Position numbers and translations under genes: made by a program. From Giardia intestinalis (Eukaryota), in the NCBI GenBank assembly GCA_000002435.2, contig CM018790.1: 64,000 nucleotides of DNA. One strand, 5' to 3'. How positions within the stretch are numbered: the stretch's first letter is position 1; every line of letters starts with the position of its first letter. Positions 10-45,300 of the stretch are shown one piece after another. The notes under the pieces were generated by a model. That model saw only the letters and a program-made list of their open reading frames with translations, did no database searches and was not told where the DNA came from.

Positions 10-1461
10 ATGCACCTTCTGTGTGAAGCCAATTTACTAAGAAAAGGCGGCCTTACTGCACTCATGACAGGGGCCATGCAAGATCTTGACGAAGTCGTCG
101 AGTTTCTTGCTCCATATCTACGAGACAAACGATCTCATGAGGGATATACTGCTCTCATGCTGGCCGCTCGACATGGCAACGCGAAAAGCGTAAAGATCTT
201 AATTAAAAAGACTGGCGAGTTGGGACTACAGGACAAACAGGGTAGATCAGCGCTAATGCTAGCCGCACACCACGGATCCAAGGACTGTGTAGAGCTCCTC
301 CTTAAGGGGGAAGGCCACCTCGTTGACTATAAAAATCGCAGAGCCTCAGCCTATACCACGAATGATGATCTGAGGCTTCTGTTGGGACTATTCAACAGGG
401 GGGATGTAGATACAGAGGGCCTAACGACTCTCATGCATGCAGCCAGGCTTACGCGCCCTGAGGTAGTTGAGCAGCTCATCAGCACACAACTAAAAGCACA
501 GGATTCCATTGGACGCACAGCTCTTATGTACGCATGCCTTTGTGGGCATGAGAGTTCGGCAGAAATGGTCCCCGTAGTCTCTATGCTGTCTGCAGAAGCA
601 GGATTATGTGACTCTCGTGGGCGTTCTGCGCTCTTCTACCTTATAGATAACCCCCACGTGCACGGCCTTACTGGAGAAGCAAGAGCCAATATCTCAAGCA
701 TACTACTGCTCCTAAGCTCTGAGCTCTCGTTGGTTGGGCCAAAGGGATTAAGGCCTCTCGATTATGCAATCACGCAGGAGAAGTATGGGGTAGGGGCTCT
801 CATCTATAACTCAGCTATGGCACTTCATACTGGAAATCTTGTCTCAATCCGGGCAATAATAGTATCAATGTTAAACACCCTTGCTTGCGGGGTAGATGAA
901 GAATACGAGGATAGCCCTATGAGGGAAGACGCAAGGGCACTGACAGACTTTATATCTTCTTCCTTTTGTGACGACGGGCCCTTTCTTGCAGAAGAGCTTG
1001 CCGATCAGATGGAGAGCATATGCAGAGATACAGAGCTGCCAGGATGTTGCATATGCCTGGAGCAAGAAGCTGAGGAGGTTATGGTGCCTTGCGGACACTT
1101 GACCTGTTGTAAGAGCTGCTTATCGAAGGTTCATAAGGTATGTCCAGTTTGTAGAGCCCCTGTTCAAACTACAATTGCTCCTCTCTTTCGGGAAGAAACA
1201 CAGCATAGTAAGGATTTGGGTGAATCTAGGCGCATGCCGCCGCGGTCTACAGTCATGTCAACATTGTCGCTTATTGCCCAAGAACCTCACCTTCAGGGCT
1301 CAGAACCACTTTCTCGGACATCTTCCCCATCCAGCGTCAGTAGTACGCGCTATAACTTAACCACAGGCTCACAGAGTCTACGCCTAGAAGTGGACTCCGA
1401 GATGGAACTGTCCGACTCCACTACTCGTTCTGAGTCGCCCTCAGTCGGCTGGCCTGCGTGA
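10..1461 (+). CDS. Ankyrin-repeat protein (Protein 21.1-like) with a C-terminal C3HC4 RING finger; possibly 5'-truncated by the window edge
   Basis: Repeated ...GxTALMxAA... ankyrin units. The C-terminus reads CCICLEQEAEEVMVPCGHLTCCKSCLSKVHKVCPVCR, which fits C-x2-C-x11-C-x-H-x3-C-x2-C-x7-C-x2-C (an IAP/MIB-type RING), followed by a Ser-rich tail. The frame is open back to nt 1, so the true start may lie upstream. Confidence 0.6.
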   Translation: MHLLCEANLLRKGGLTALMTGAMQDLDEVVEFLAPYLRDKRSHEGYTALMLAARHGNAKSVKILIKKTGELGLQDKQGRSALMLAAHHGSKDCVELLLKGEGHLVDYKNRRASAYTTNDDLRLLLGLFNRGDVDTEGLTTLMHAARLTRPEVVEQLISTQLKAQDSIGRTALMYACLCGHESSAEMVPVVSMLSAEAGLCDSRGRSALFYLIDNPHVHGLTGEARANISSILLLLSSELSLVGPKGLRPLDYAITQEKYGVGALIYNSAMALHTGNLVSIRAIIVSMLNTLACGVDEEYEDSPMREDARALTDFISSSFCDDGPFLAEELADQMESICRDTELPGCCICLEQEAEEVMVPCGHLTCCKSCLSKVHKVCPVCRAPVQTTIAPLFREETQHSKDLGESRRMPPRSTVMSTLSLIAQEPHLQGSEPLSRTSSPSSVSSTRYNLTTGSQSLRLEVDSEMELSDSTTRSESPSVGWPA

Positions 1462-1570
1462 CTACAAGGTTTCAACTGACATTGCGTTTAAGATTATAGG
1501 TAAGCAGCAAAATTTGAGAAAGGCGCAAAATTTTCATTTTTTGGGAAGATTAAAATCAAATTGGCACGAG

Positions 1571-3691
1571 ATGTCGAGCATCGAGCTTCCCGAAGGCTAC
1601 CGCTTCCAGACGACTTTGGCGGCAGGAGAGTACAGCATGCTCTTCCTGGCCATGGGAAACGACTACCAGGAGGTCGCTATCAAGAGCTTTGATTGCACGC
1701 AGATGGACGATGCACAAGTCTCGGAAATTCACCGCCAGGCCCTACTCCTGAAGTCCGTTAACCATCCGCTGGTACTCAAGGTATATGACGTCCAGATGAA
1801 CATTACGCGCACGCGCCTGCACGTGATCATGGAGCCCTTCTTCAAGACGCTTCAGAACCTCATCGACGAGTGTGAGAAGGCAGATCGCTCGCTCCTCAAC
1901 AACATCGTCTGCCAGGTGGCCTACCAGGTCATCAAGGGGCTCCACTATCTCTCCACCACCAACCATGTCGCGGTCAACGAGCAGGGACAGGAGTTCTCGC
2001 AGGACAAGATCTTCCACTCGTTTATCACACCGAACGACATTGTGTTCAACACCTCCGGAGTTGTGAAGCTTATGAACATCTTCCCCCTGGAGCATAGGAT
2101 GCTCTATGAAAAGGGCGACGCCAGCTTCCCGGGGCTCGCCTATGCGTCGCCTGAGTTTCTCAACAGGGAATACACCGAGTGCCCTGCCGATGTGTGGTCT
2201 GCGGGCGCGTGCATTTTCGCCATGGCTATGCGCAGGCCCCCGTTCAACTCTACCAACGTGGAGTCCCTAAGGGTGGAGGTCGAAGAAGGAAAGAAGGATG
2301 GCCTCGATATCAGCTTCAGCCGCGAGCTTGATGACATGCTCCAGCGCATGATGACGCCGGACCAGGGCTACAGGCCCACTGCCGGCGATCTCCTCAACGA
2401 CCCCTCAATCACCGAGGCGGCGTACGAGATCGAAGCGGGCGGCCTGCAAAACCCGTGGATGGCAATCGGCTTCTCCAGGCCGATCTCTCAGGCAGTGGCC
2501 CCTGTGTCCAACGACTCCCCGGTCCTCGCCCTGGATCCGAACAATGTGTACCCGATTGCCTTCGATGACAACAACCCATGGGAGAGGTACTGGCTTAACG
2601 CTCCTCGTCCAGATGCGACAGTCGACGCAGCCTCCTACACCAGGGGCACTATCGGCGAGGAAGTGGTTGCAAGGGTCCCGACACCACCGCCCGAGATGGA
2701 TATGTATGCCACGATGGATGATGCCTACAAGGGTGCCAACGATGAGTCCGCCTACTACGCCCCTGATAGCTATTATGGCAGTGCCCCTGCAGAGAGCGTC
2801 ATGGACGTCGCGCAAGTTGTGCGGGTGGAGACGCCTCCTCCAGAGCCTGATGCCTATGCTGACGCGGGCGCTCAGGGCAATGACTATAAGGTGGACGATG
2901 AGGCAGCGGCCTACGCACTCACCAGCTACTACGGTGATGCGCCTGCGGACAGCATCATGCTTACCGATGATGAGGTAGTCCACAGGATTCCCACACCACT
3001 GCCAGAAGGGGTGGCAGAGGTAGTTGTAAAGAGGAGCGCACCAGCCCCGGTCCCAACCCCAGCCCCGCTCATGGAAACGGCACCTGAGTCCAAGACTGTC
3101 ACTGCTCTTATGAACGCGGTTCGAACGGGCAAAAACGATGTTGTGCAGAGGCTCGTCGGAGAGCACTCCGGAGACATCGGATGGAAGACGCCCAACGAGA
3201 AGAAGACCGCCCTCATGGTCGCTGCGGATCTTGGGAACGCCGAGGCTGTCGAGTTGCTGGCGCCATGTGAGTGTGGTGAGGTAGACTCGGATGGCTGGCG
3301 AGCGATCGATTACGCCGCCCAAAACGGTAATGTCAGGGCCGTCAACGCTCTTCTTCAGTACGAGGGAGACATGCCTATCGTGCGCAAGGACGGATGCACG
3401 CCGCTCTTCCAGGCGGTGTTCTGGAACAAGCCGGACTGTGTGAGGGCACTCGCTCCTAAGTACGCCGGCGCAACGACGACAAGCCACTACTGGCAGGGGG
3501 AGGGCTTTACGGCCCTCATGGAGGCGGCTAAGTGCTGCCGCGTCGAGTGCGTTGAGATTCTGGCGCCCTATGAAGCGAAGATGACGGACAAAAAGGGTCA
3601 TACAGCACTCTACCACTGTGAGCACGCGTGGGACCATATTCTCGATGACGCCAAGAAGGAGGAATGCATCAGGATCCTCGAGAGGGCCTAG
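1571..3691 (+). CDS. NEK-like protein kinase-fold (predicted pseudokinase) fused to C-terminal ankyrin repeats
   Basis: The track ORF begins at TTG 1514; the first ATG is 1571 (MSSIELPEGYRF...) and has an A/T-rich leader. Kinase fold markers VAIK, ASPEF and DVWSAG are present. The catalytic loop reads HSFITPND rather than HRDLKPxN, and there is no DFG (LMNIFP). A Pro/Ala/Tyr-rich linker follows, then about 5 ankyrin repeats. Confidence 0.7.
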   Translation: MSSIELPEGYRFQTTLAAGEYSMLFLAMGNDYQEVAIKSFDCTQMDDAQVSEIHRQALLLKSVNHPLVLKVYDVQMNITRTRLHVIMEPFFKTLQNLIDECEKADRSLLNNIVCQVAYQVIKGLHYLSTTNHVAVNEQGQEFSQDKIFHSFITPNDIVFNTSGVVKLMNIFPLEHRMLYEKGDASFPGLAYASPEFLNREYTECPADVWSAGACIFAMAMRRPPFNSTNVESLRVEVEEGKKDGLDISFSRELDDMLQRMMTPDQGYRPTAGDLLNDPSITEAAYEIEAGGLQNPWMAIGFSRPISQAVAPVSNDSPVLALDPNNVYPIAFDDNNPWERYWLNAPRPDATVDAASYTRGTIGEEVVARVPTPPPEMDMYATMDDAYKGANDESAYYAPDSYYGSAPAESVMDVAQVVRVETPPPEPDAYADAGAQGNDYKVDDEAAAYALTSYYGDAPADSIMLTDDEVVHRIPTPLPEGVAEVVVKRSAPAPVPTPAPLMETAPESKTVTALMNAVRTGKNDVVQRLVGEHSGDIGWKTPNEKKTALMVAADLGNAEAVELLAPCECGEVDSDGWRAIDYAAQNGNVRAVNALLQYEGDMPIVRKDGCTPLFQAVFWNKPDCVRALAPKYAGATTTSHYWQGEGFTALMEAAKCCRVECVEILAPYEAKMTDKKGHTALYHCEHAWDHILDDAKKEECIRILERA

Positions 3692-4521: not shown

Positions 4522-4641
4522 ATCGCTGCCGGCGCATTCTCTAGCATCCCCTGCCGCTGAGTGAACATCTGTGACCACAGTAAAGCGAATTTAAAATGGA
4601 ATTTGGGGTTTTTGGTCAAACCGCTTAAAGCGGGCAATAAA

Positions 4642-6189
4642 ATGGACGGCCAGGCCTTTGCCATGGACTACCAGCCCGTTGCGGACATCTACTCCACCGG
4701 CGTGCACGAGATTGCCTCTGCACGCTCGACCAGGGATCCTAGCTCGAACATCGCTCTCTTCACCTGCTCCTATGGCGGGTTTGACGAGTCGGACCGAGCT
4801 ACCCTCAGGAGGCGCACGGGCGAGTACTGCGAGTTCAACAACTCGTCGACCGCTGTCCAGCCGGATCTTCTTAGCCCTTATCTGGCGCGTCTGTCCCACT
4901 ACTTCAACGACGATGCGTCTGCCCTCCTGACCATGGGTCTTCCTTACGGAGTTAACACCCTCTACGACGTGATGATGGCGAAGGCTCAGTCATACAGCAA
5001 CTTCACCGAGGAGGAGGTCTGGCGCGTGGTTGCGGCCCTCTGTGATGCCGCGCGCTTCATGCACAGCGAGGAGAAACCCGACACAGAACTGGAGGAGTTT
5101 GCGCACCTTGGCATCCACCCTGCCAACATCTTCCTGTACGCTGACGGCGCCCGTATCAGGCTTGGGTACCCGTACATCTGCCCCACAATGAGTTTCAAGA
5201 ACCCAGGCAATTACAGGGCCTTCCAGCAGCTCGGCGAGGCGCACTTCATGGCGCCGGAGTTCATCGAGGCTGGCGCCAAGGGCTCGTGTCCTTGTGACAT
5301 ATTCTCTATCGGTATGGTTGGGTATGCCATGATGACAAACTCGACTGCCTGGAGCGCGAGCAATATCAACGATCTGCAGGGAGAGGTGTACACTCGCGGG
5401 GCCATCAGCCTGCCATACGACGGCCGATACAGCCAGGACCTCGTTGATCTCATCAACTCTATGCTTTCCTTCGACTCGTCTGCCCGCCCCAAGGCAGAGC
5501 AGCTCTGTGCAAGCGGAAAGATTGCGCAGTGCATCGCGGAGAACGGAGACGCTCCCACGATGGCTCCTCCGAAGATGACCCGCGATATCGTCCAGCCACC
5601 CAGCGGGCTCACAGACCTCATGATCGCTGCCAGAGACGGCGACCTCAGTGGCGTCAGGAACAACCTCCACCAGGCAGGGTCCACAGACCAGTGCGGCCGC
5701 ACCGCTCTCATGTACGCGGCAGAGCACGGGTACGCCGATTGTGTCCGCGCGATCGTCTCTGACGCAATGGGCCACGGCGAGGTTCGCCTCCAGGACAAGT
5801 ACATGTGGACTGCAACCATGTATGCTGCCCAGAACGGACACGCCGATTGCGTCTCGCTTCTCCACGAGGAGTTCGGGATGCAGCGTCGCGACGGTGCCAC
5901 GGCGCTCTTCACTGCCGTCTTCTGGAACCGTTGCGAGTGCGTCAAGGTGCTCGCCCCGACTGAGGCCATCATCTCCACCAACGACAGGTACTGGCAGGGC
6001 GAGCGCTACACGGCTGCAATGGAGGCCGCAAGGTGGGGACGTCCCGAGTGTCTCCAGGAGCTTCTTGGGTACATCGACAAGTACACTACCGATAATAATG
6101 GGAACGATGTGGCGTACTATGCCATGCACCCATGGGAGCACGTGTCTGCAGATAAGAGCAGCAGAGTGCGTGAGGTCCTGAACCTGTAA
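4642..6189 (+). CDS. NEK-like degenerate kinase domain (pseudokinase) plus C-terminal ankyrin repeats
   Basis: The track start 4561 is GTG; the first ATG is 4642, preceded by an A/T-rich leader. Kinase-like remnants are HLGIHPANIF (catalytic loop with D replaced by G), FMAPEF (APE) and DIFSIGMVGY (DxWSxG). There is no VAIK lysine and no DFG. The C-terminal ankyrin module matches those of the neighbouring genes. Confidence 0.65.
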   Translation: MDGQAFAMDYQPVADIYSTGVHEIASARSTRDPSSNIALFTCSYGGFDESDRATLRRRTGEYCEFNNSSTAVQPDLLSPYLARLSHYFNDDASALLTMGLPYGVNTLYDVMMAKAQSYSNFTEEEVWRVVAALCDAARFMHSEEKPDTELEEFAHLGIHPANIFLYADGARIRLGYPYICPTMSFKNPGNYRAFQQLGEAHFMAPEFIEAGAKGSCPCDIFSIGMVGYAMMTNSTAWSASNINDLQGEVYTRGAISLPYDGRYSQDLVDLINSMLSFDSSARPKAEQLCASGKIAQCIAENGDAPTMAPPKMTRDIVQPPSGLTDLMIAARDGDLSGVRNNLHQAGSTDQCGRTALMYAAEHGYADCVRAIVSDAMGHGEVRLQDKYMWTATMYAAQNGHADCVSLLHEEFGMQRRDGATALFTAVFWNRCECVKVLAPTEAIISTNDRYWQGERYTAAMEAARWGRPECLQELLGYIDKYTTDNNGNDVAYYAMHPWEHVSADKSSRVREVLNL

Positions 6190-38962: not shown

Positions 38963-40264
38963 ATGGAGGATCAGGAGAAATTAGACGCTGAGAGCGAGTT
39001 GCTCAGCCAGCCTCTGTCGGATGACTCTGAGTATAAGAGCACCCAGTCTCCCATCGCCGTAGATACCCACACGATGTCAAGCGCCCTGATGCTTGCCTTG
39101 GAGCCGTACCAATATGGGACAGACTTTATTCTGAATAGGAATAGCATCCCGCGCCTTCAGAAGGAGCTGGACAAACTCATTGGCCGGACAGCTTCAAAGC
39201 CGCGACTTAGCCTTCGCATGGGTCAGAAGAAGTACATGGACTTGGAGCTTATGAGCTCTCTGGTTTTGGACTCGGTTCAGGCTGTCGCGTCTGACAGCTT
39301 CTGGGAGTGCTTCGAACGACCATACTCGCGGCCGTGGAATTGGACTTTCCCTCTTTGGGTTACCTGGGCAACTGGCTGCATCATCCGCTATTGTATTCTT
39401 TTACCTATCCGGGCTTTTCTCTTTCTGTTTATGCTTGTATTCTGCCTCTTCGGGACTCTTATGACGTCTGTTTTGGTTCCATCGAAGCGTTTGCAGACAC
39501 ATATTCAACGGCGCATACTTAAGATAGGCTATCACCTTACCCTCTTGTCTATAGGCGCTGTTGTTCTCATCCATGGATCTATCCCGCACACCCAATCAGG
39601 GAGAATCTACGTTGCTAATCACACGACTATAATGGATGCAATAATCTTGAGCTCAATCAAGCAGTTTGCCATTGTCGGACAAAAGTATAGTGGCCTCCTG
39701 GGCATTATTGAAGAACGTATCCTAGGATGCTTGGACCCTGTATGGTTCAATAGGTCTGACAGAACCGAGAGAACTGAGGCAGCGACAAAGATCAAGAATC
39801 GCATTTACGACGAAGGAGCTAAGGCGCCTCTGCTTTTGTTCCCAGAGGGAGTACTTGTCAATAACCGCTTCATAATTATGTTCAAAAAGGGAGCGTTCGA
39901 GCTTGGTGCAGAGATTTGCCCAATAGCAATCAAGTATAACGAGACACTGAGCTCTCATGCATACTGGTCTTCTCGGGATGTTTCTTTCTATAGATATCTG
40001 TTTGACTTAATGACGAATTGGATATTGATTGTTGATGTTTGGTTTCTTCCCCCTACGTCTATTCAGGACGGAGAGACGCCAGAAGAATTTGCGGAAAGAG
40101 TCAAACTGAGTATTGCTCGAGCAGCCCGACTGATACCGCGACCGTGGGATGGATATCTGAAATATACGAAAGCCACAAAGTCTATGCACAGAAACAGAAA
40201 GACAGAGCTTTTGCACCAAATCGGATTTTCTCCAAAGGAGATTGATGAAATGGTTTCTAGTTAA
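38963..40264 (+). CDS. GPAT3/4 (AGPAT6)-like glycerol-3-phosphate/lysophospholipid acyltransferase
   Basis: Acyltransferase motif I HTTIMDAI (HxxxxD) and motif III LLLFPEGVLVNNRFIIMFKKGAFELG, which is close to GPAT4 IFPEGTCINNTSVMMFKKGSFEIG. There are N-terminal hydrophobic segments. The track start 38951 is TTG; the first ATG is 38963. Confidence 0.75.
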   Translation: MEDQEKLDAESELLSQPLSDDSEYKSTQSPIAVDTHTMSSALMLALEPYQYGTDFILNRNSIPRLQKELDKLIGRTASKPRLSLRMGQKKYMDLELMSSLVLDSVQAVASDSFWECFERPYSRPWNWTFPLWVTWATGCIIRYCILLPIRAFLFLFMLVFCLFGTLMTSVLVPSKRLQTHIQRRILKIGYHLTLLSIGAVVLIHGSIPHTQSGRIYVANHTTIMDAIILSSIKQFAIVGQKYSGLLGIIEERILGCLDPVWFNRSDRTERTEAATKIKNRIYDEGAKAPLLLFPEGVLVNNRFIIMFKKGAFELGAEICPIAIKYNETLSSHAYWSSRDVSFYRYLFDLMTNWILIVDVWFLPPTSIQDGETPEEFAERVKLSIARAARLIPRPWDGYLKYTKATKSMHRNRKTELLHQIGFSPKEIDEMVSS

Positions 40265-40559
40265 TGATTGATGCTATGCTCCATCTTCTCCTCAGGACGA
40301 AGACGAGACAGGGACGTCTGTACCTGAGAACTCGCTATCTGCGCCACCAGAGTCTGTTGCTTGCAGCATTGTCGAGCCAAGGAACCTACCATCCAGCCTT
40401 TCCTTGGTTCCGCCCTTCGCGCCCACTCCTAGCGCTGCTCCGAATGTTTATCCGATCCAGAGCATCTATCCAGCCCCTGGTGCCGTCCCTTATCTCCAGG
40501 CGTCGGGGGTGCTCAGTCTACAGCCGACGCCCTACCCCTTCGGCTTCGGGGTGCCGCTG

Positions 40560-41620
40560 ACATACGTCCCTGTTCTGATACAATCGCCAGGACATACTGG
40601 CGGATGGCCCGTGGGCACGGGTGACGGTCCGCTCGGAAGGCCGACCAGGCAGCCCTGAGCCCCTGCTGCACCGCCTCGCACCAGAGGAGGAATCACGGTC
40701 TACAGCCAGAAGGGCAAAAGAGGCGCGTGGGTGGAGGCGCTCTCCCGATTTTCTTTTCGAGCTCGAACAGAACAGCCGTAGAGACTGTACGAAAACATCC
40801 TACAGTACCATCGAGGCCTCGCACGGAGGGGTTCTGAATGGACGAACGCCTAGGCTGGGAGTCATTCTAGAGCCGATTCTGGCCGAGGAAGGGGCTCCCC
40901 GCTTACGGGGGCATGGCGGCTCCGCTGGCCACGTACGGCGACAGTTGCCGGGTCAGCGGCCCAGCCAAACCAGCGATGCCGCTGCGGAAGCCACCCCCGG
41001 CCCTGTCCCACACAGTCGATGCCCTTGGCAGCCGCCTGCTCCAGTCCAGATCCACCCCACCGGCTGCGTGCCAGGGCCAGACATCTAGCAACCACAGAGA
41101 CACGTCCACCGAGGCCGACACTGGCTGCACACACCGACCGGCGCGTCGATTCGAGGCACAGACGCGCATTTTTTCTTTTGTCCGGCGAGATTCCGGGCTG
41201 CACTGGCTGCACGGACGCACGCAGCTGTTCCGCGCCGGCCGGGGCCTTCCGAGGCAGGCCTTGCACGAGAACGCGACGTCTCGCGCAGGTCCACCGGCCC
41301 TCTGGCGGGCGCACGGCCGCGGAGTGTCCGTCCCTGTTGCGATGCAGTGCACACGGCTTTGTAGCACGTGCAGAGACCCAGTTGCCCTGCCCTGGCTGTG
41401 GCTCCTGCGCGCTGCGGCCAGCCACTGAGACCAGCCCCCATTGGAGCAGGCCACGGCAGGGCCCGCCGGACAAGCTCTCTACATGAGCACATGCTGCACA
41501 GCTTAGAGGCGAACGCTGCACAGCCCGGCTAGTGCTCGCTGCCCCTATCGCTGCGTGGTACCTCTTCGTGAGACGACTGCGCAAGGCCACCCGATCGAGG
41601 GCTACGGCAGGACGCAAAGA
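40560..41620. other. GC-rich (about 70% GC) CpG-rich island with no coherent ORF
   Basis: Sampled 60-nt lines here give 72-73% GC, against about 49% for the rest of the window. At least six overlapping stop-free frames run on both strands. All of them translate to Arg/Pro/Ala-rich nonsense with no domain. Confidence 0.5.
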
Positions 41621-42429
41621 GTGGACTAGTTCAGGGCGTTGTGCATCTAGTAGGCCTGTGAGTACGCCTAGGTCGTGTATAGCTATTACATCAACATACT
41701 CATGTAGGTGGATACAACTGATTGCTCCGAATGGACTGGTTCTTGATGGCGTGGGCTGATGGGGAAGGACGCATTTGTATTACAGGTCCAAGCATAGAGG
41801 GTGGCAGCAGGAAACGAAAAGTTGCTTGATTGCTGGTGTGCAGGTAAATGCAGCTATTTGCACTTGACTTGCCTAGTGTGCCGGATAGACTGCACGCAGG
41901 GAGCCACTAGGGTCGCCAGCTATGAAGCGAGGGAGGATGTCGTGAGAAAGGCTGTATGCCACTTGGAAGATAGTGTTCTCCAGCGCGTTATGCAGCACGC
42001 GGCAGATGCTGTACAAGAATGGGACAAGGATGCCACATATCCATTGTTGTGACAGAGGTGACAGGGCATCTAGCAGGCCCTATGTTGGGGTCACGCCTGC
42101 ACCACCACAGCAGCGCATACTAGGGACGATGGTATCCTGTCCAGGTGGGCATCGCCTATACATCTATGTTGCAAATGAATCGTTATCAAAGCCAGAGTTG
42201 ATCGTACCATGAGCCCATTTGTCATACACTGAAGCTTTTTTGGTCTCCATTCCCAAAGGACTGAGCAAACTAAGGCACGGCTTAAGCGTCTATCTCTTCT
42301 TCTCTATAATCAGAAGCAGAATGCGAAGTGTGTCTACGTTATTCGTATTCCTTCCATGATAATAGTATAACGCTCAGGAATACAATCAGGAAACTTTCTC
42401 AATACAAGTCTCTATGCACTGCCGGCGCA

Positions 42430-43689
42430 ATGTTTGCTAAGCTTATCTTCACAAGCCTCGTTCTGCAGCTGGCAGAGGCGACACGGCCAGCGGTCAAAGA
42501 GCAATCCGGCGCCTGCACCTCTCCAGAGAACGCCGGGTGTGCCGCGTGCAACCCGAATAACGGAGATGAGCTCTGCCTCTCGTGCACAAACGCGCAGGAG
42601 TTCATCCAGCTCAACAAGAAGGGGTGCACGGCCGCCTGCGCCGGGGATGGAGTGATTGGAGACGCTGCTGTCGACCCGAAGGTCTGCAAGTGTGACGGAG
42701 ACAATGGCTACACGCTCCAGGGCGACGCGTGCGTCAAGAGACAGGCCAACGAGTGCCAGACAGAGAACTGCCAGGAATGCACTGGCAAAGGCACAGCCAA
42801 CGAGGTCTGTACAAAGTGTACTTCTACTCATTACTTGACACCAACAAACCAGTGCGTACCTGACTGCACAGTTATCAAGGGCTACTACGGAGATACTAAC
42901 GAAGGGAAGTGTAAGCCATGTAGCCCTGAGTGCGCTGAGTGCGTTGGGCCGGCCAACAATCAGTGCAGTGCCTGTCCTGCTGGCAAGAAACTGACATATA
43001 CAGATGACAGCTATCCTAATAACGGAGGCGCCTGCGGGGATGCGTGCAAAGTGTCTGCAGACGGCGCTGGCTGTGAGACATGCGGGGCTCAGATAGGAGG
43101 AACTGCATACTGCTCAAAGTGCAAGACCTCCACTCAGGCCCCCTTGAACGGCGACTGTGCGGCCAATACGCGAACACAATTTTGCACTACAGTGAGCAAT
43201 GGAGTGTGCACTCAATGCGCTGCTAACTACTTCCTCAAGGACGGCGGCTGCTATCAAACAGATAGACAGCCTGGTAAACAAGTGTGTAGTAGTGCACAGG
43301 GAGGAACATGTACAAAATGTGCCAACGGACTACAGGTACAAAGTGGAGCCTGTGGAAACTGTCATTCTACTTGTGCTACGTGCAGTGCTCCCAGTATTGC
43401 AAGCTCGTGTAAGACCTGTGCCACTGGGTATTACAAGGAAAACGGTGACGATACCACTGATGGGTTATGCAAGAAGTGCTCAGAGAAGATCTCTGGATGC
43501 AAGCAATGTGTGTCATCATCTGGCAGTTCAGTCATATGTTTAGAATCAGAAGTAGGCACTGGTGGAAGCGTCAACAAGAGCGGTCTCTCCACTGGCGCCA
43601 TAGCGGGCATTGCTGTGGCTGCTGTTATTGTCATTGGTGGTCTCGTCGGCTTCCTCTGCTGGTGGTTCCTCTGCCGCGGGAAGGCGTAG
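42430..43689 (+). CDS. Variant-specific surface protein (VSP)
   Basis: An N-terminal signal peptide (MFAKLIFTSLVLQLAEA) is followed by many CXXC motifs and a GGCY motif (KDGGCYQ). The C-terminus has a TM helix and the invariant ...FLCRGKA tail. The track start 42328 is GTG and I reject it. Confidence 0.85.
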   Translation: MFAKLIFTSLVLQLAEATRPAVKEQSGACTSPENAGCAACNPNNGDELCLSCTNAQEFIQLNKKGCTAACAGDGVIGDAAVDPKVCKCDGDNGYTLQGDACVKRQANECQTENCQECTGKGTANEVCTKCTSTHYLTPTNQCVPDCTVIKGYYGDTNEGKCKPCSPECAECVGPANNQCSACPAGKKLTYTDDSYPNNGGACGDACKVSADGAGCETCGAQIGGTAYCSKCKTSTQAPLNGDCAANTRTQFCTTVSNGVCTQCAANYFLKDGGCYQTDRQPGKQVCSSAQGGTCTKCANGLQVQSGACGNCHSTCATCSAPSIASSCKTCATGYYKENGDDTTDGLCKKCSEKISGCKQCVSSSGSSVICLESEVGTGGSVNKSGLSTGAIAGIAVAAVIVIGGLVGFLCWWFLCRGKA

Positions 43690-44070: not shown

Positions 44071-45300
44071 CTACTTCTTGTCAGACAGTCTGATGACTCC
44101 AGGAAGCGGGTCGCCCTGAAGAAGCTCGAGAGACGCGCCACCTCCGGTACTAACGTGGGAGATCTTGTTCGTTGCTTTGGCCTTTTTGGCTGCAGTTGCA
44201 GAGTCTCCGCCACCGATAATGGTGATGGCGCCTGCCTCAGTAGCCTTAACCACTGCATCTACCATGGCCATGGTTCCACGGCAGAAGCTGTTCATCTCAA
44301 AGACGCCCGGTGGACCATTCCAGATGACTGTCTTTGAAGACATGATGGCCTTCGCAAAGAGCTCGTTGGAGGCAGGGCCACAATCAAGGCCCATCCAACC
44401 TTCAGGAATACCCTCCTCGCATGTAACAACCTTCGTCTTGGCGTTGTCGTCAAACTCCGAGGCCGCGATGCAATCGACAGGAAGAATCACTTCCACATTG
44501 TGAGCCTTGGCGATGTCCATCAATGTGTCAACAGTCTCTGCACCCTCTTTGTCGTAAAGCGAGTTCGCGATGTTCATCCCCTTGAGCTTCTTGAGGAAGG
44601 TAAACGACATGCCACCGCAGATGATAATCTTGTCGACCTTCGGAAGTAGGTTCTTGATGAGCTTGATTTTGTCTGCTACCTTAGCGCCTCCAAGAATAGC
44701 CAAGTATGGCTTCTTGGGCTCAGAAAGGGCGATACGGAAGTAGTCGATCTCCTTCTGCATCAGGAAGCCAGCGCAACGGATCGAATACCCTTCTCCGACC
44801 ATAGAAGAGTGAGGGCGGTGCGCGGTTCCGAATGCATCATTACAGTAGATGTCAGCGAGCTTCGCGAGAGACGCTCTGAAAGCCTTTACTTCAGAATTGT
44901 CCTCATTCTCGTTGGTCTCCTCCTTATGAAAGCGCAGATTCTCCAAGAGGAAAATGGAACCAGGCGCAGGGTTGGCACAGGCACTCTCAACCTCGGGTCC
45001 ACAGCAATCCTTAAGAAGGGTGACAGGCTTTCCCAGAAGGCTTTCGAGAGCCTTGGCGACTGGAGCCAGAGTGAATGCCGCTTCTGGTCCGGTGCCCTTT
45101 GGGCGGCCAAGATGGGAGGCCAAGACAAGGGACTTACAGCCCTTCTCAAGACAGTGCCTCAAGGTCGGCAAAGAAGCCTCGATTCTCGCCAAATTGGTGA
45201 TGTTACCCTCCTTGTCCTGGGGGACATTGTAATCCGTGCGCACGAAAACACGCTTTCCAGAGAGATCTACGTCGGCAATGGAGAGCTTCGCTAAGGACAT
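44071..45300 (-). CDS. PGK: Phosphoglycerate kinase
   Basis: MSLAKLSIADVDLSGKRVFVRTDYNVP..., a full-length PGK with ATP/3-PG binding motifs (…GGGASLELL…). Confidence 0.9.
   Translation of the reverse strand: MSLAKLSIADVDLSGKRVFVRTDYNVPQDKEGNITNLARIEASLPTLRHCLEKGCKSLVLASHLGRPKGTGPEAAFTLAPVAKALESLLGKPVTLLKDCCGPEVESACANPAPGSIFLLENLRFHKEETNENEDNSEVKAFRASLAKLADIYCNDAFGTAHRPHSSMVGEGYSIRCAGFLMQKEIDYFRIALSEPKKPYLAILGGAKVADKIKLIKNLLPKVDKIIICGGMSFTFLKKLKGMNIANSLYDKEGAETVDTLMDIAKAHNVEVILPVDCIAASEFDDNAKTKVVTCEEGIPEGWMGLDCGPASNELFAKAIMSSKTVIWNGPPGVFEMNSFCRGTMAMVDAVVKATEAGAITIIGGGDSATAAKKAKATNKISHVSTGGGASLELLQGDPLPGVIRLSDKK

Follow-up and report, generated by a model that had tools for sequence, protein, structure and literature searches.

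A partial segmental duplicate of the GL50803_00117191/00117192 locus as the probable content of a GC-rich gap beside a surface-protein gene of Giardia intestinalis

The 64,000-nt stretch of DNA analysed here (the window) belongs to the 1.54-Mb chromosome of Giardia intestinalis WB in the 2020 WB C6 assembly, as established through exact protein matches, and contains an island of high G+C content (40560–41620) in the gap between an acyltransferase gene and a gene for a cysteine-rich protein resembling the variant-specific surface proteins (VSPs). The gap extends over 2165 nt from the acyltransferase stop codon to the ATG of the surface-protein gene (40265–42429). The two flanking proteins carry the consecutive accessions KAE8301968.1 and KAE8301969.1 and therefore no protein is annotated between them, in agreement with the 2.1-kb gap upstream of a VSP described in the first-pass annotation of this DNA. 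With a probability of roughly 0.78, the gap consists mostly of a 1.6-kb partial segmental duplicate of the GL50803_00117191/00117192 locus. The duplicated segment (40280–41876, plus strand) contains the entire GC island and can be classed either as a partial segmental duplicate or as a fragment of an unprocessed pseudogene, located in a VSP-associated synteny break; elements of this kind are already known. Both the composition spike and the seemingly empty 2.1 kb beside a surface-antigen gene are explained by this partial duplication.

Copies and junctions of the duplicated segment

A second copy of the segment is found in a Logan contig of 4247 nt (SRR12825854_679, hereafter L028/L029), which aligns with 40281–41876 over 1596 nt at 98.6% identity with a single gap. 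The flanks of this contig are unrelated to the window on both sides and the similarity extends past neither end of the segment. Closely similar copies with differing flanks thus exist at two or more sites, which is one hallmark of a segmental duplication. A further contig, L027 (SRR18693203), is collinear with 40368–41876 without gaps, its 41 mismatches corresponding to 97.3% identity, and the number of segment copies is at least two and probably three. L028/L029 encodes a 317-residue open reading frame (ORF) identical to the WB protein P0149, the product of GL50803_00117191/00117192 (KAE8302022.1 and KAE8302025.1), two identical genes located on the same 1,539,535-bp WB chromosome. The exact match to a WB protein, together with the break seen in de Bruijn assemblies, indirectly suggests that the L028-type copy and the copy in the window may coexist in one genome. 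The first-pass annotation had held that a clean match to a known repeat would explain the island as an inserted fragment, and L028/L029 provides such a match.

Direct reading of the alignment places the left junction at 40279/40280, 16 nt past the acyltransferase stop, and the right junction at about 41876, 553 nt before the ATG of the surface-protein gene. The left boundary is mirrored in the behaviour of short-read assemblies, with all 10 listed Logan contigs carrying the acyltransferase (more than 20 were read) ending at 40337, 73 nt past the stop of that gene. The first base that distinguishes the copies is 40307, a G in the window and an A in the L028 copy, and the next difference is located at 40459. 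Contigs entering the segment from the acyltransferase end at 40337 because the copies differ at 40307 (40307 + 30, assuming k = 31), and the duplication thus accounts for the break seen at this point in short-read assemblies from many isolates. In most assemblies the ORFs of the island lie on contigs of 1510–1580 nt, as expected of a collapsed repeat.

The copies are told apart by ~20 base differences, among them those at 40736 and 40862, which are unevenly distributed along the segment. No difference between the window and L028 occurs in 40863–41201 (339 nt) or in 41312–41760 (449 nt), and L027 is also free of differences in 40954–41137, while dense clusters comprise five differences in 40459–40472, seven in 41202–41311 and five in 41823–41871. 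The clustering between the window and L028 is significant (squared coefficient of variation, P = 0.0015), and this patchiness suggests occasional gene conversion between the copies. The substitutions that could be polarised, small in number, comprise 12 GC-to-AT and 7 AT-to-GC changes and give no sign that the high G+C content is currently being reinforced.

The parent gene, its fragment and the ancestral locus

The 5' part of the segment (40280–40658, plus strand) is a pseudogene fragment without annotation in the WB reference and consists of the last ~125 codons and the stop of a GL50803_117191-type gene, encoding its proline-rich tail. In the window the proline-rich frame is open only from 40272 to 40655. 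It corresponds to the C-terminus of the complete 317-residue ORF in L028/L029 and, a few substitutions apart, is identical to the last ~125 residues of P0149, the homology being maintained in frame. The fragment has no ATG and is preceded by an in-frame stop at 40269–40271. The N-terminal ~190 codons and the upstream region bearing a tRNA-Ala gene are missing from the window copy, which has thereby lost elements needed for expression. Five changes specific to the window fall within 14 nt (40459–40472) and result in IQSIY versus IPGVY, introducing neither a stop nor a frameshift. Synonymous changes in the frame of the fragment amount to 8 among the copies against 4.4 expected, and this frame provides the positive control for the selection test applied to the island. 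The stretch 40300–40499, inside the fragment, is the sole one that folds clearly more stably than its shuffles (z = −3.1 on the plus and −2.4 on the minus strand), and it is flanked by a 14-nt inverted repeat (40308–40321 and 40560–40573).

The parent gene occupies positions 1491–2444 of L029 and belongs to a Giardia-specific family (proteins P0130–P0147) with several paralogue groups per genome and the invariant strings RIYHWYRETH and ELRMTYNN. In the AlphaFold model of the parent protein the predicted local distance difference test (pLDDT) score falls below 50 at residues 155–206 and 208–317. The family is accordingly modelled as a confident, all-helical N-terminal domain of ~150 residues followed by a proline-rich tail predicted to be disordered, and the fragment in the window would represent the disordered tail only. 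The parent family has no Pfam match, no PDB sequence match and no significant Foldseek fold match; its weak, non-significant fold matches are mostly to helix-turn-helix DNA binders. A literature search with the parent gene identifiers returned nothing.

The surroundings of the parent gene are shared between lineages. In assemblage B (isolate GS, ACGJ01002258.1, contig L030) a tRNA-Ala(AGC) gene is followed by the orthologue GL50581_1998 and by GC-rich DNA (61–75%), and the same order of tRNA-Ala(AGC), parent gene and GC-rich downstream DNA is found in L029; the arrangement is therefore old. The tRNA-Ala(AGC) gene, at 718–791 of L029 and 9207–9280 of L030, lies ~700 nt upstream of the 317-residue parent gene. 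Identity between assemblages A and B reaches 95% over a block of 94 nt surrounding it, compared with 73% for nearby coding sequence, and the conserved block is nothing other than the tRNA-Ala gene. Within the non-coding part of the segment, alignment with assemblage B is possible only over the first ~150–170 nt downstream of the parent stop (40659–40830, plus strand), which include the T-rich motif CCCGATTTTCTTTTCGAG. The comparison with assemblage B covers 381 nt of downstream DNA, of which the first ~150 nt past the stop align locally with z = 19 against shuffles, while the next 230 nt are not alignable (z = 1.2) although still GC-rich, the GS contig ending there. Similarly, tblastx against assemblage B gives no match beyond ~100 nt past the stop.

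At the acyltransferase the situation differs from that at the parent locus. In isolates whose acyltransferase is 86% identical to that of WB, this gene is followed by AT-rich DNA with no relation to the island, which therefore reached this position secondarily and is not ancestral there. The short-read and Sanger-era contigs of several assemblages that carry these loci (L021–L026) or the GS parent locus (L030) all end 80–380 nt past the gene, which is the acyltransferase in L021–L026 and the 316-residue orthologue in GS. Both positions appear to be recurrent assembly and synteny breakpoints across Giardia lineages. In isolate DH (A2) a full-length orthologue of 321 residues (ESU39360.1) is two accession numbers away from phosphoglycerate kinase (PGK; ESU39358.1), on a contig of 288 kb, and this accession numbering suggests that A2 may keep a complete gene where WB has the 3' fragment. 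Orthologues of the parent gene are listed as DHA2_151571 in DH and GLP15_4271 in isolate P15. No Giardia copy of the island was found in JGI metagenomes.

In WB a 1.6-kb piece, comprising the last ~125 codons of the parent gene and ~1.2 kb of downstream DNA, lies between the acyltransferase and the VSP-like gene. Beginning in the middle of the gene, the copy is devoid of a start codon, of the parent's folded N-terminal domain and of its upstream region, and the GC island is the DNA that follows the parent gene, carried along as a passenger. According to Xu et al. (2020, PMC7000408), duplications make up 6.9% of the WB genome, mostly as short one-gene stretches, and few genes lie in the variable regions that surround VSPs. 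Duplications and rearrangements are described there as common in WB, and the segment may well have originated by such an event. At the parent locus the GC-rich kilobase would be a rapidly evolving spacer, probably what is left of an old and now eroded coding sequence, which would account for a weak three-base periodicity of constant phase and a depletion of stops without present purifying selection. The suggestion in the first-pass annotation of a decayed high-GC gene thus receives weak support from periodicity and stop depletion.

Composition, reading frames and RNA potential of the island

The G+C content is 65.4% over 40560–41620 and 67.0% over 40800–41600, and 200-nt windows within the island reach a maximum of 70.5%, against a mean of 49.7% for the 64 kb (standard deviation of 1-kb windows, 4.0%). 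The island stands about 4 standard deviations above this mean and contains the highest 1-kb values of the whole window. The value of about 70–72% given for it earlier applies to short sub-stretches and not to the whole island. The ratio of observed to expected CpG is 0.89 in the island and 0.80 in the whole window, CpG being frequent because G and C are frequent. The island described earlier as CpG-rich is therefore not enriched beyond its base composition and does not qualify as a CpG island. The GC-rich core (40830–41620; 64–70% G+C) is depleted of stops, displays the weak periodicity and is not alignable with assemblage B, and the distal tail of the duplicate (41621–41876) returns to an ordinary G+C of ~50%. 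The short recurring motifs noticed before are real but are local micro-repeats, with three copies of GGCTGCAC at 41123–41212 and two copies of GCTGCACAG at 41493–41523. Tandem Repeats Finder detected no tandem array in the island, which has no longer internal repeat either, and the 64-kb window holds no second copy of it.

The island is open in many frames, as had been noted. Stop-free frames of 305, 210, 191, 185, 169 and 147 codons overlap on both strands, and only 1.4 frames of 140 codons or more, instead of these six, would be expected from 2000 dinucleotide-preserving shuffles (P = 0.0005). Counting both strands, the island contains 28 stop trinucleotides where 47 ± 5 would be expected, and the deficit persists under block-wise shuffling. 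It resides mainly in TGA and TCA, which occur 7 + 3 = 10 times in 40560–41620 against ~25 expected from the dinucleotide content, TAG and CTA not being under-represented. This TGA/TCA deficit is a bias symmetric under reverse complementation and is left here without an explanation. The longest frame (305 codons, 40865–41779, minus strand) has no ATG. Directly antisense to it lies an ATG-initiated ORF of 171 residues (40913–41428, plus strand), which is not annotated by NCBI and was called by automatic gene prediction on Logan contigs. The two longest frames of the island are direct antisense partners, as is also the case in real GC-rich genes of the window. Two such genes, at 1388–3688 and 4561–6186, have 57–59% G+C overall and 0.71–0.75 at third codon positions (GC3), carry direct-antisense shadow ORFs of 442 and 403 codons, respectively, and serve as an internal reference for GC-rich coding DNA in the Giardia genome. 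Over 40650–41880 the G+C content has a period of three in a single constant phase (0.69/0.59/0.59, p = 0.004), with a signal-to-noise ratio of 5.7 in the island, 2.6 in the VSP-like gene and 7.9 in the acyltransferase.

Codon usage over 40850–41600 is negative in all six frames, at −9 to −34 bits per 50 codons, in contrast to a mean score of +15 per 100 codons for the correct frames of real genes. No frame of the island has a G+C content at second codon positions (GC2) below 0.60, compared with 0.35–0.56 in the genes of the window, and the 171-residue frame has 0.66/0.65/0.75 at its three positions. No island frame matches Pfam above threshold. The window, L027 and L028 differ by 25 substitutions, a sample of limited power in which no island frame has a synonymous excess above 2 standard deviations; synonymous changes amount to 8 against 7.6 expected in the 305-codon frame, where no purifying selection is seen, and to 5 against 8.3 in the 171-residue frame. 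The stop of the 305-codon frame varies among haplotypes (ESALE-stop versus ESALEWLPA-stop). A HMMER search with this minus-strand frame, the one covered by the exhaustive homology search, retrieved from 1.84 billion representatives only its own Logan ORF cluster and a spurious repeat protein. The statement of the first-pass annotation that the island holds no coherent gene and is unlikely to be a normal protein gene is upheld by codon usage, by the missing ATG of the longest frame and by the results for Pfam and synonymous change. Several other origins were considered and rejected. A bacterial origin is not supported, the plus-strand frame having no relative in 185,579 prokaryotic genomes. A VSP or pseudo-VSP origin, considered on account of CxxC-like strings in the +2 frame, is contradicted by the lack of a Pfam VSP match and of nucleotide similarity to the adjacent VSP-like gene. 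Against a retrotransposon remnant, neither a reverse transcriptase nor any other domain is detected in any frame. A long minus-strand pseudogene (42165–40865) finds no support in the codon-usage scan, which reveals no coding-like minus frame at 41650–41950.

The openness of the island would also be compatible with an unannotated, fast-evolving GC-rich protein gene, existing now or until recently, in the form of the 171-residue ORF or of the antisense 305-codon frame. The six long frames, the stop depletion, the antisense pairing and a periodicity intermediate between those of the VSP-like gene and the acyltransferase all point in this direction, and both ORFs are open in all Logan haplotypes found. 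Such a gene is nonetheless quite unlikely in view of the lack of synonymous excess in either frame, GC2 values of 0.60–0.65 that fall outside the range of real genes, strongly negative codon-usage scores, the missing ATG and variable stop of the longer frame, the lack of a Pfam match and of a homologue of the 305-codon frame, and the lack of any tblastx match to assemblage B farther than ~100 nt beyond the stop; moreover, the region is empty in the RNA-seq-guided re-annotation of WB. A long or structured non-coding RNA (ncRNA), possibly a source of antisense or small RNAs acting on the adjacent VSP-like gene, would suit a non-coding region in a gene-poor area beside a VSP, the more so as Giardia transcribes the VSP-related Gireps from both strands (PMC2817412). 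Assemblages A and B share conserved sequence over the first ~150 nt past the parent stop, and minus-strand A-rich tracts at 40751–40759 and 41171–41179 may resemble the Giardia initiator-like sequence. However, Rfam models match nowhere in the window at the gathering score, nor in 40200–42400 at a threshold relaxed to E ≤ 10, the related loci containing tRNA-Ala only, and minimum-free-energy z-scores over 40500–41700 range from −1.9 to +1.3 on both strands, without excess folding. In the proposed check with RNAalifold, run on the stretch over which A and B can be aligned, the covariation term of +0.94 is unfavourable and, on a diversity too low for a strong test, lends no support to a conserved structure, and the core is not alignable with assemblage B. 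The island is similar neither to the adjacent VSP-like gene nor to other DNA of the window and would therefore have no target for base pairing, and it lacks the tandem units of 222–228 nt of Gireps. The structured ncRNA and the VSP-linked regulatory or antisense element put forward in the first-pass annotation accordingly find little to sustain them, the latter also in light of the same segment residing at a second locus with different flanks, and an ncRNA is considered a poor candidate. The segment most likely has no specific role for the neighbouring VSP-like gene at this position and their link would be positional, because the 587-nt flank of the second copy is unlike the VSP upstream region and the island shares no VSP sequence.

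Giardia ribosomal DNA (rDNA) is very GC-rich, and the island could in principle be a relocated piece of an rDNA unit such as the intergenic spacer, which lies outside the coverage of Rfam; rDNA fragments are known at chromosome ends and gaps (PMC7000408). The models of the small-subunit, large-subunit, 5.8S and 5S rRNAs have no match in the window at the gathering score or in 40200–42400 at E ≤ 10, the island assembles into simple 1.5-kb contigs bounded exactly by the ends of the duplication rather than tangled with a high-copy repeat, and the GC-rich DNA that follows the assemblage B orthologue indicates that this DNA has long belonged to the parent locus and did not arrive recently from rDNA, all of which makes an rDNA source extremely improbable. 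The earlier proposal of an rDNA or other GC-rich fragment relocated to a VSP-associated region was essentially right about the relocated fragment, its source being the 3' end and downstream DNA of the GL50803_00117191/2 locus rather than rDNA. In another scenario the G+C content is actively maintained by GC-biased gene conversion and the segment is a hotspot for rearrangements around VSPs. The presence of at least two and probably three copies, the significant clustering of their differences in the manner of conversion tracts, the GC-richness of assemblage B without sequence conservation and the breaking of assemblies of several assemblages at this place are consistent with it. The 12 GC-to-AT against 7 AT-to-GC substitutions, small numbers again, imply an equilibrium near the genome average instead of 65%, and this scenario is rated as very unlikely.

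Several points weigh against a simple passenger duplicate. The right junction at 41876 is without independent short-read confirmation, and the coexistence of the copies in one genome is suggested indirectly, by the protein match and the assembly break described above. The 25 substitutions and the 381 nt of assemblage B DNA leave room for a short functional element. The stop deficit of the island is 40%, stronger than the ~23% of the acyltransferase; a long-dead ORF should lose such a deficit, and part of it may therefore reflect the unexplained mutational or compositional bias in TGA/TCA. Finally, the DNA at the same position in assemblage B is GC-rich despite the loss of alignability, which hints that the composition itself may be maintained; that the DNA downstream of GL50803_117191 family genes stays GC-rich and stop-poor while its sequence diverges is a minor puzzle left over. 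On the basis of the ~65% G+C, the TGA/TCA deficit and the multi-frame openness in assemblage A, the composition in assemblage B and the turnover of sequence, it is conceivable though unlikely that the GC-rich kilobase after GL50803_117191-type genes is not inert and represents either a fast-evolving unconventional coding or long non-coding RNA locus or a conversion-prone element that seeds duplications beside surface-antigen genes. The partial duplication of the GL50803_00117191/00117192 locus remains the preferred explanation and carries a caution, namely that GC-rich multi-ORF DNA near VSPs is not to be taken for regulatory RNA.

Neighbouring genes and comparison with known systems

The genes around the duplicate are arranged in the order PP2C (KAE8301967.1), acyltransferase (KAE8301968.1), cysteine-rich protein (KAE8301969.1) and PGK (KAE8301970.1). 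The acyltransferase gene (38963–40264, plus strand) encodes a lysophosphatidic acid/glycerol-3-phosphate acyltransferase, and PGK is encoded at 44071–45300 on the minus strand. Between the end of the duplicate and the ATG of the cysteine-rich protein lies a stretch (41877–42429) that begins where the similarity to L029 stops and contains no coding-like frame. The cysteine-rich surface protein itself (42430–43689, plus strand, 419 residues, ending in CRGKA) is an exact match to KAE8301969.1 and lies outside the duplicate. It is VSP-like, yet is named 'High cysteine membrane protein' by NCBI, and unlike its neighbours it has only a new-style RefSeq accession (XP_037901674.1). The 3' end of its gene is present as a diverged allele in A2-type isolates, and Logan contigs entering from the PGK side stop in this repetitive 3' end.

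The high G+C content is a property that the island shares with Giardia rDNA, from which it departs by being part of a low-copy segment tied to a protein-gene locus and by matching no rRNA model. As non-coding DNA in the neighbourhood of a VSP the island resembles Gireps and pseudo-VSP arrays (PMC2817412, PMC7000408). In contrast to Gireps, which are VSP-similar and organised in tandem units of 222–228 nt (PMC2817412), it has no tandem units, no similarity to the adjacent VSP-like gene and no Pfam match in the frames tested. A closer parallel in composition is provided by the GC-rich Giardia genes with antisense shadow ORFs, which likewise display overlapping frames, an antisense longest pair and a three-base periodicity of G+C. 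These genes differ from the island in their GC2 of 0.42–0.45, GC3 of 0.71–0.75, positive codon-usage scores and homologues. In comparison with unprocessed pseudogenes the window copy has the expected non-coding flank, a breakpoint inside the parent ORF and copy-specific changes; unlike decayed pseudogenes, the fragment is free of stops in the parental frame, being either too young or too often converted. The one-gene duplications of WB differ from the segment, which keeps only the 3' third of the gene, lacks promoter and start and has no protein annotation found for it. With the short segmental duplications of WB (PMC7000408) the segment has in common its kilobase scale, an identity of ~98.6% and the probable location of the copies on the same chromosome, as well as its position beside a cysteine-rich surface-protein gene at a break of synteny between assemblages.

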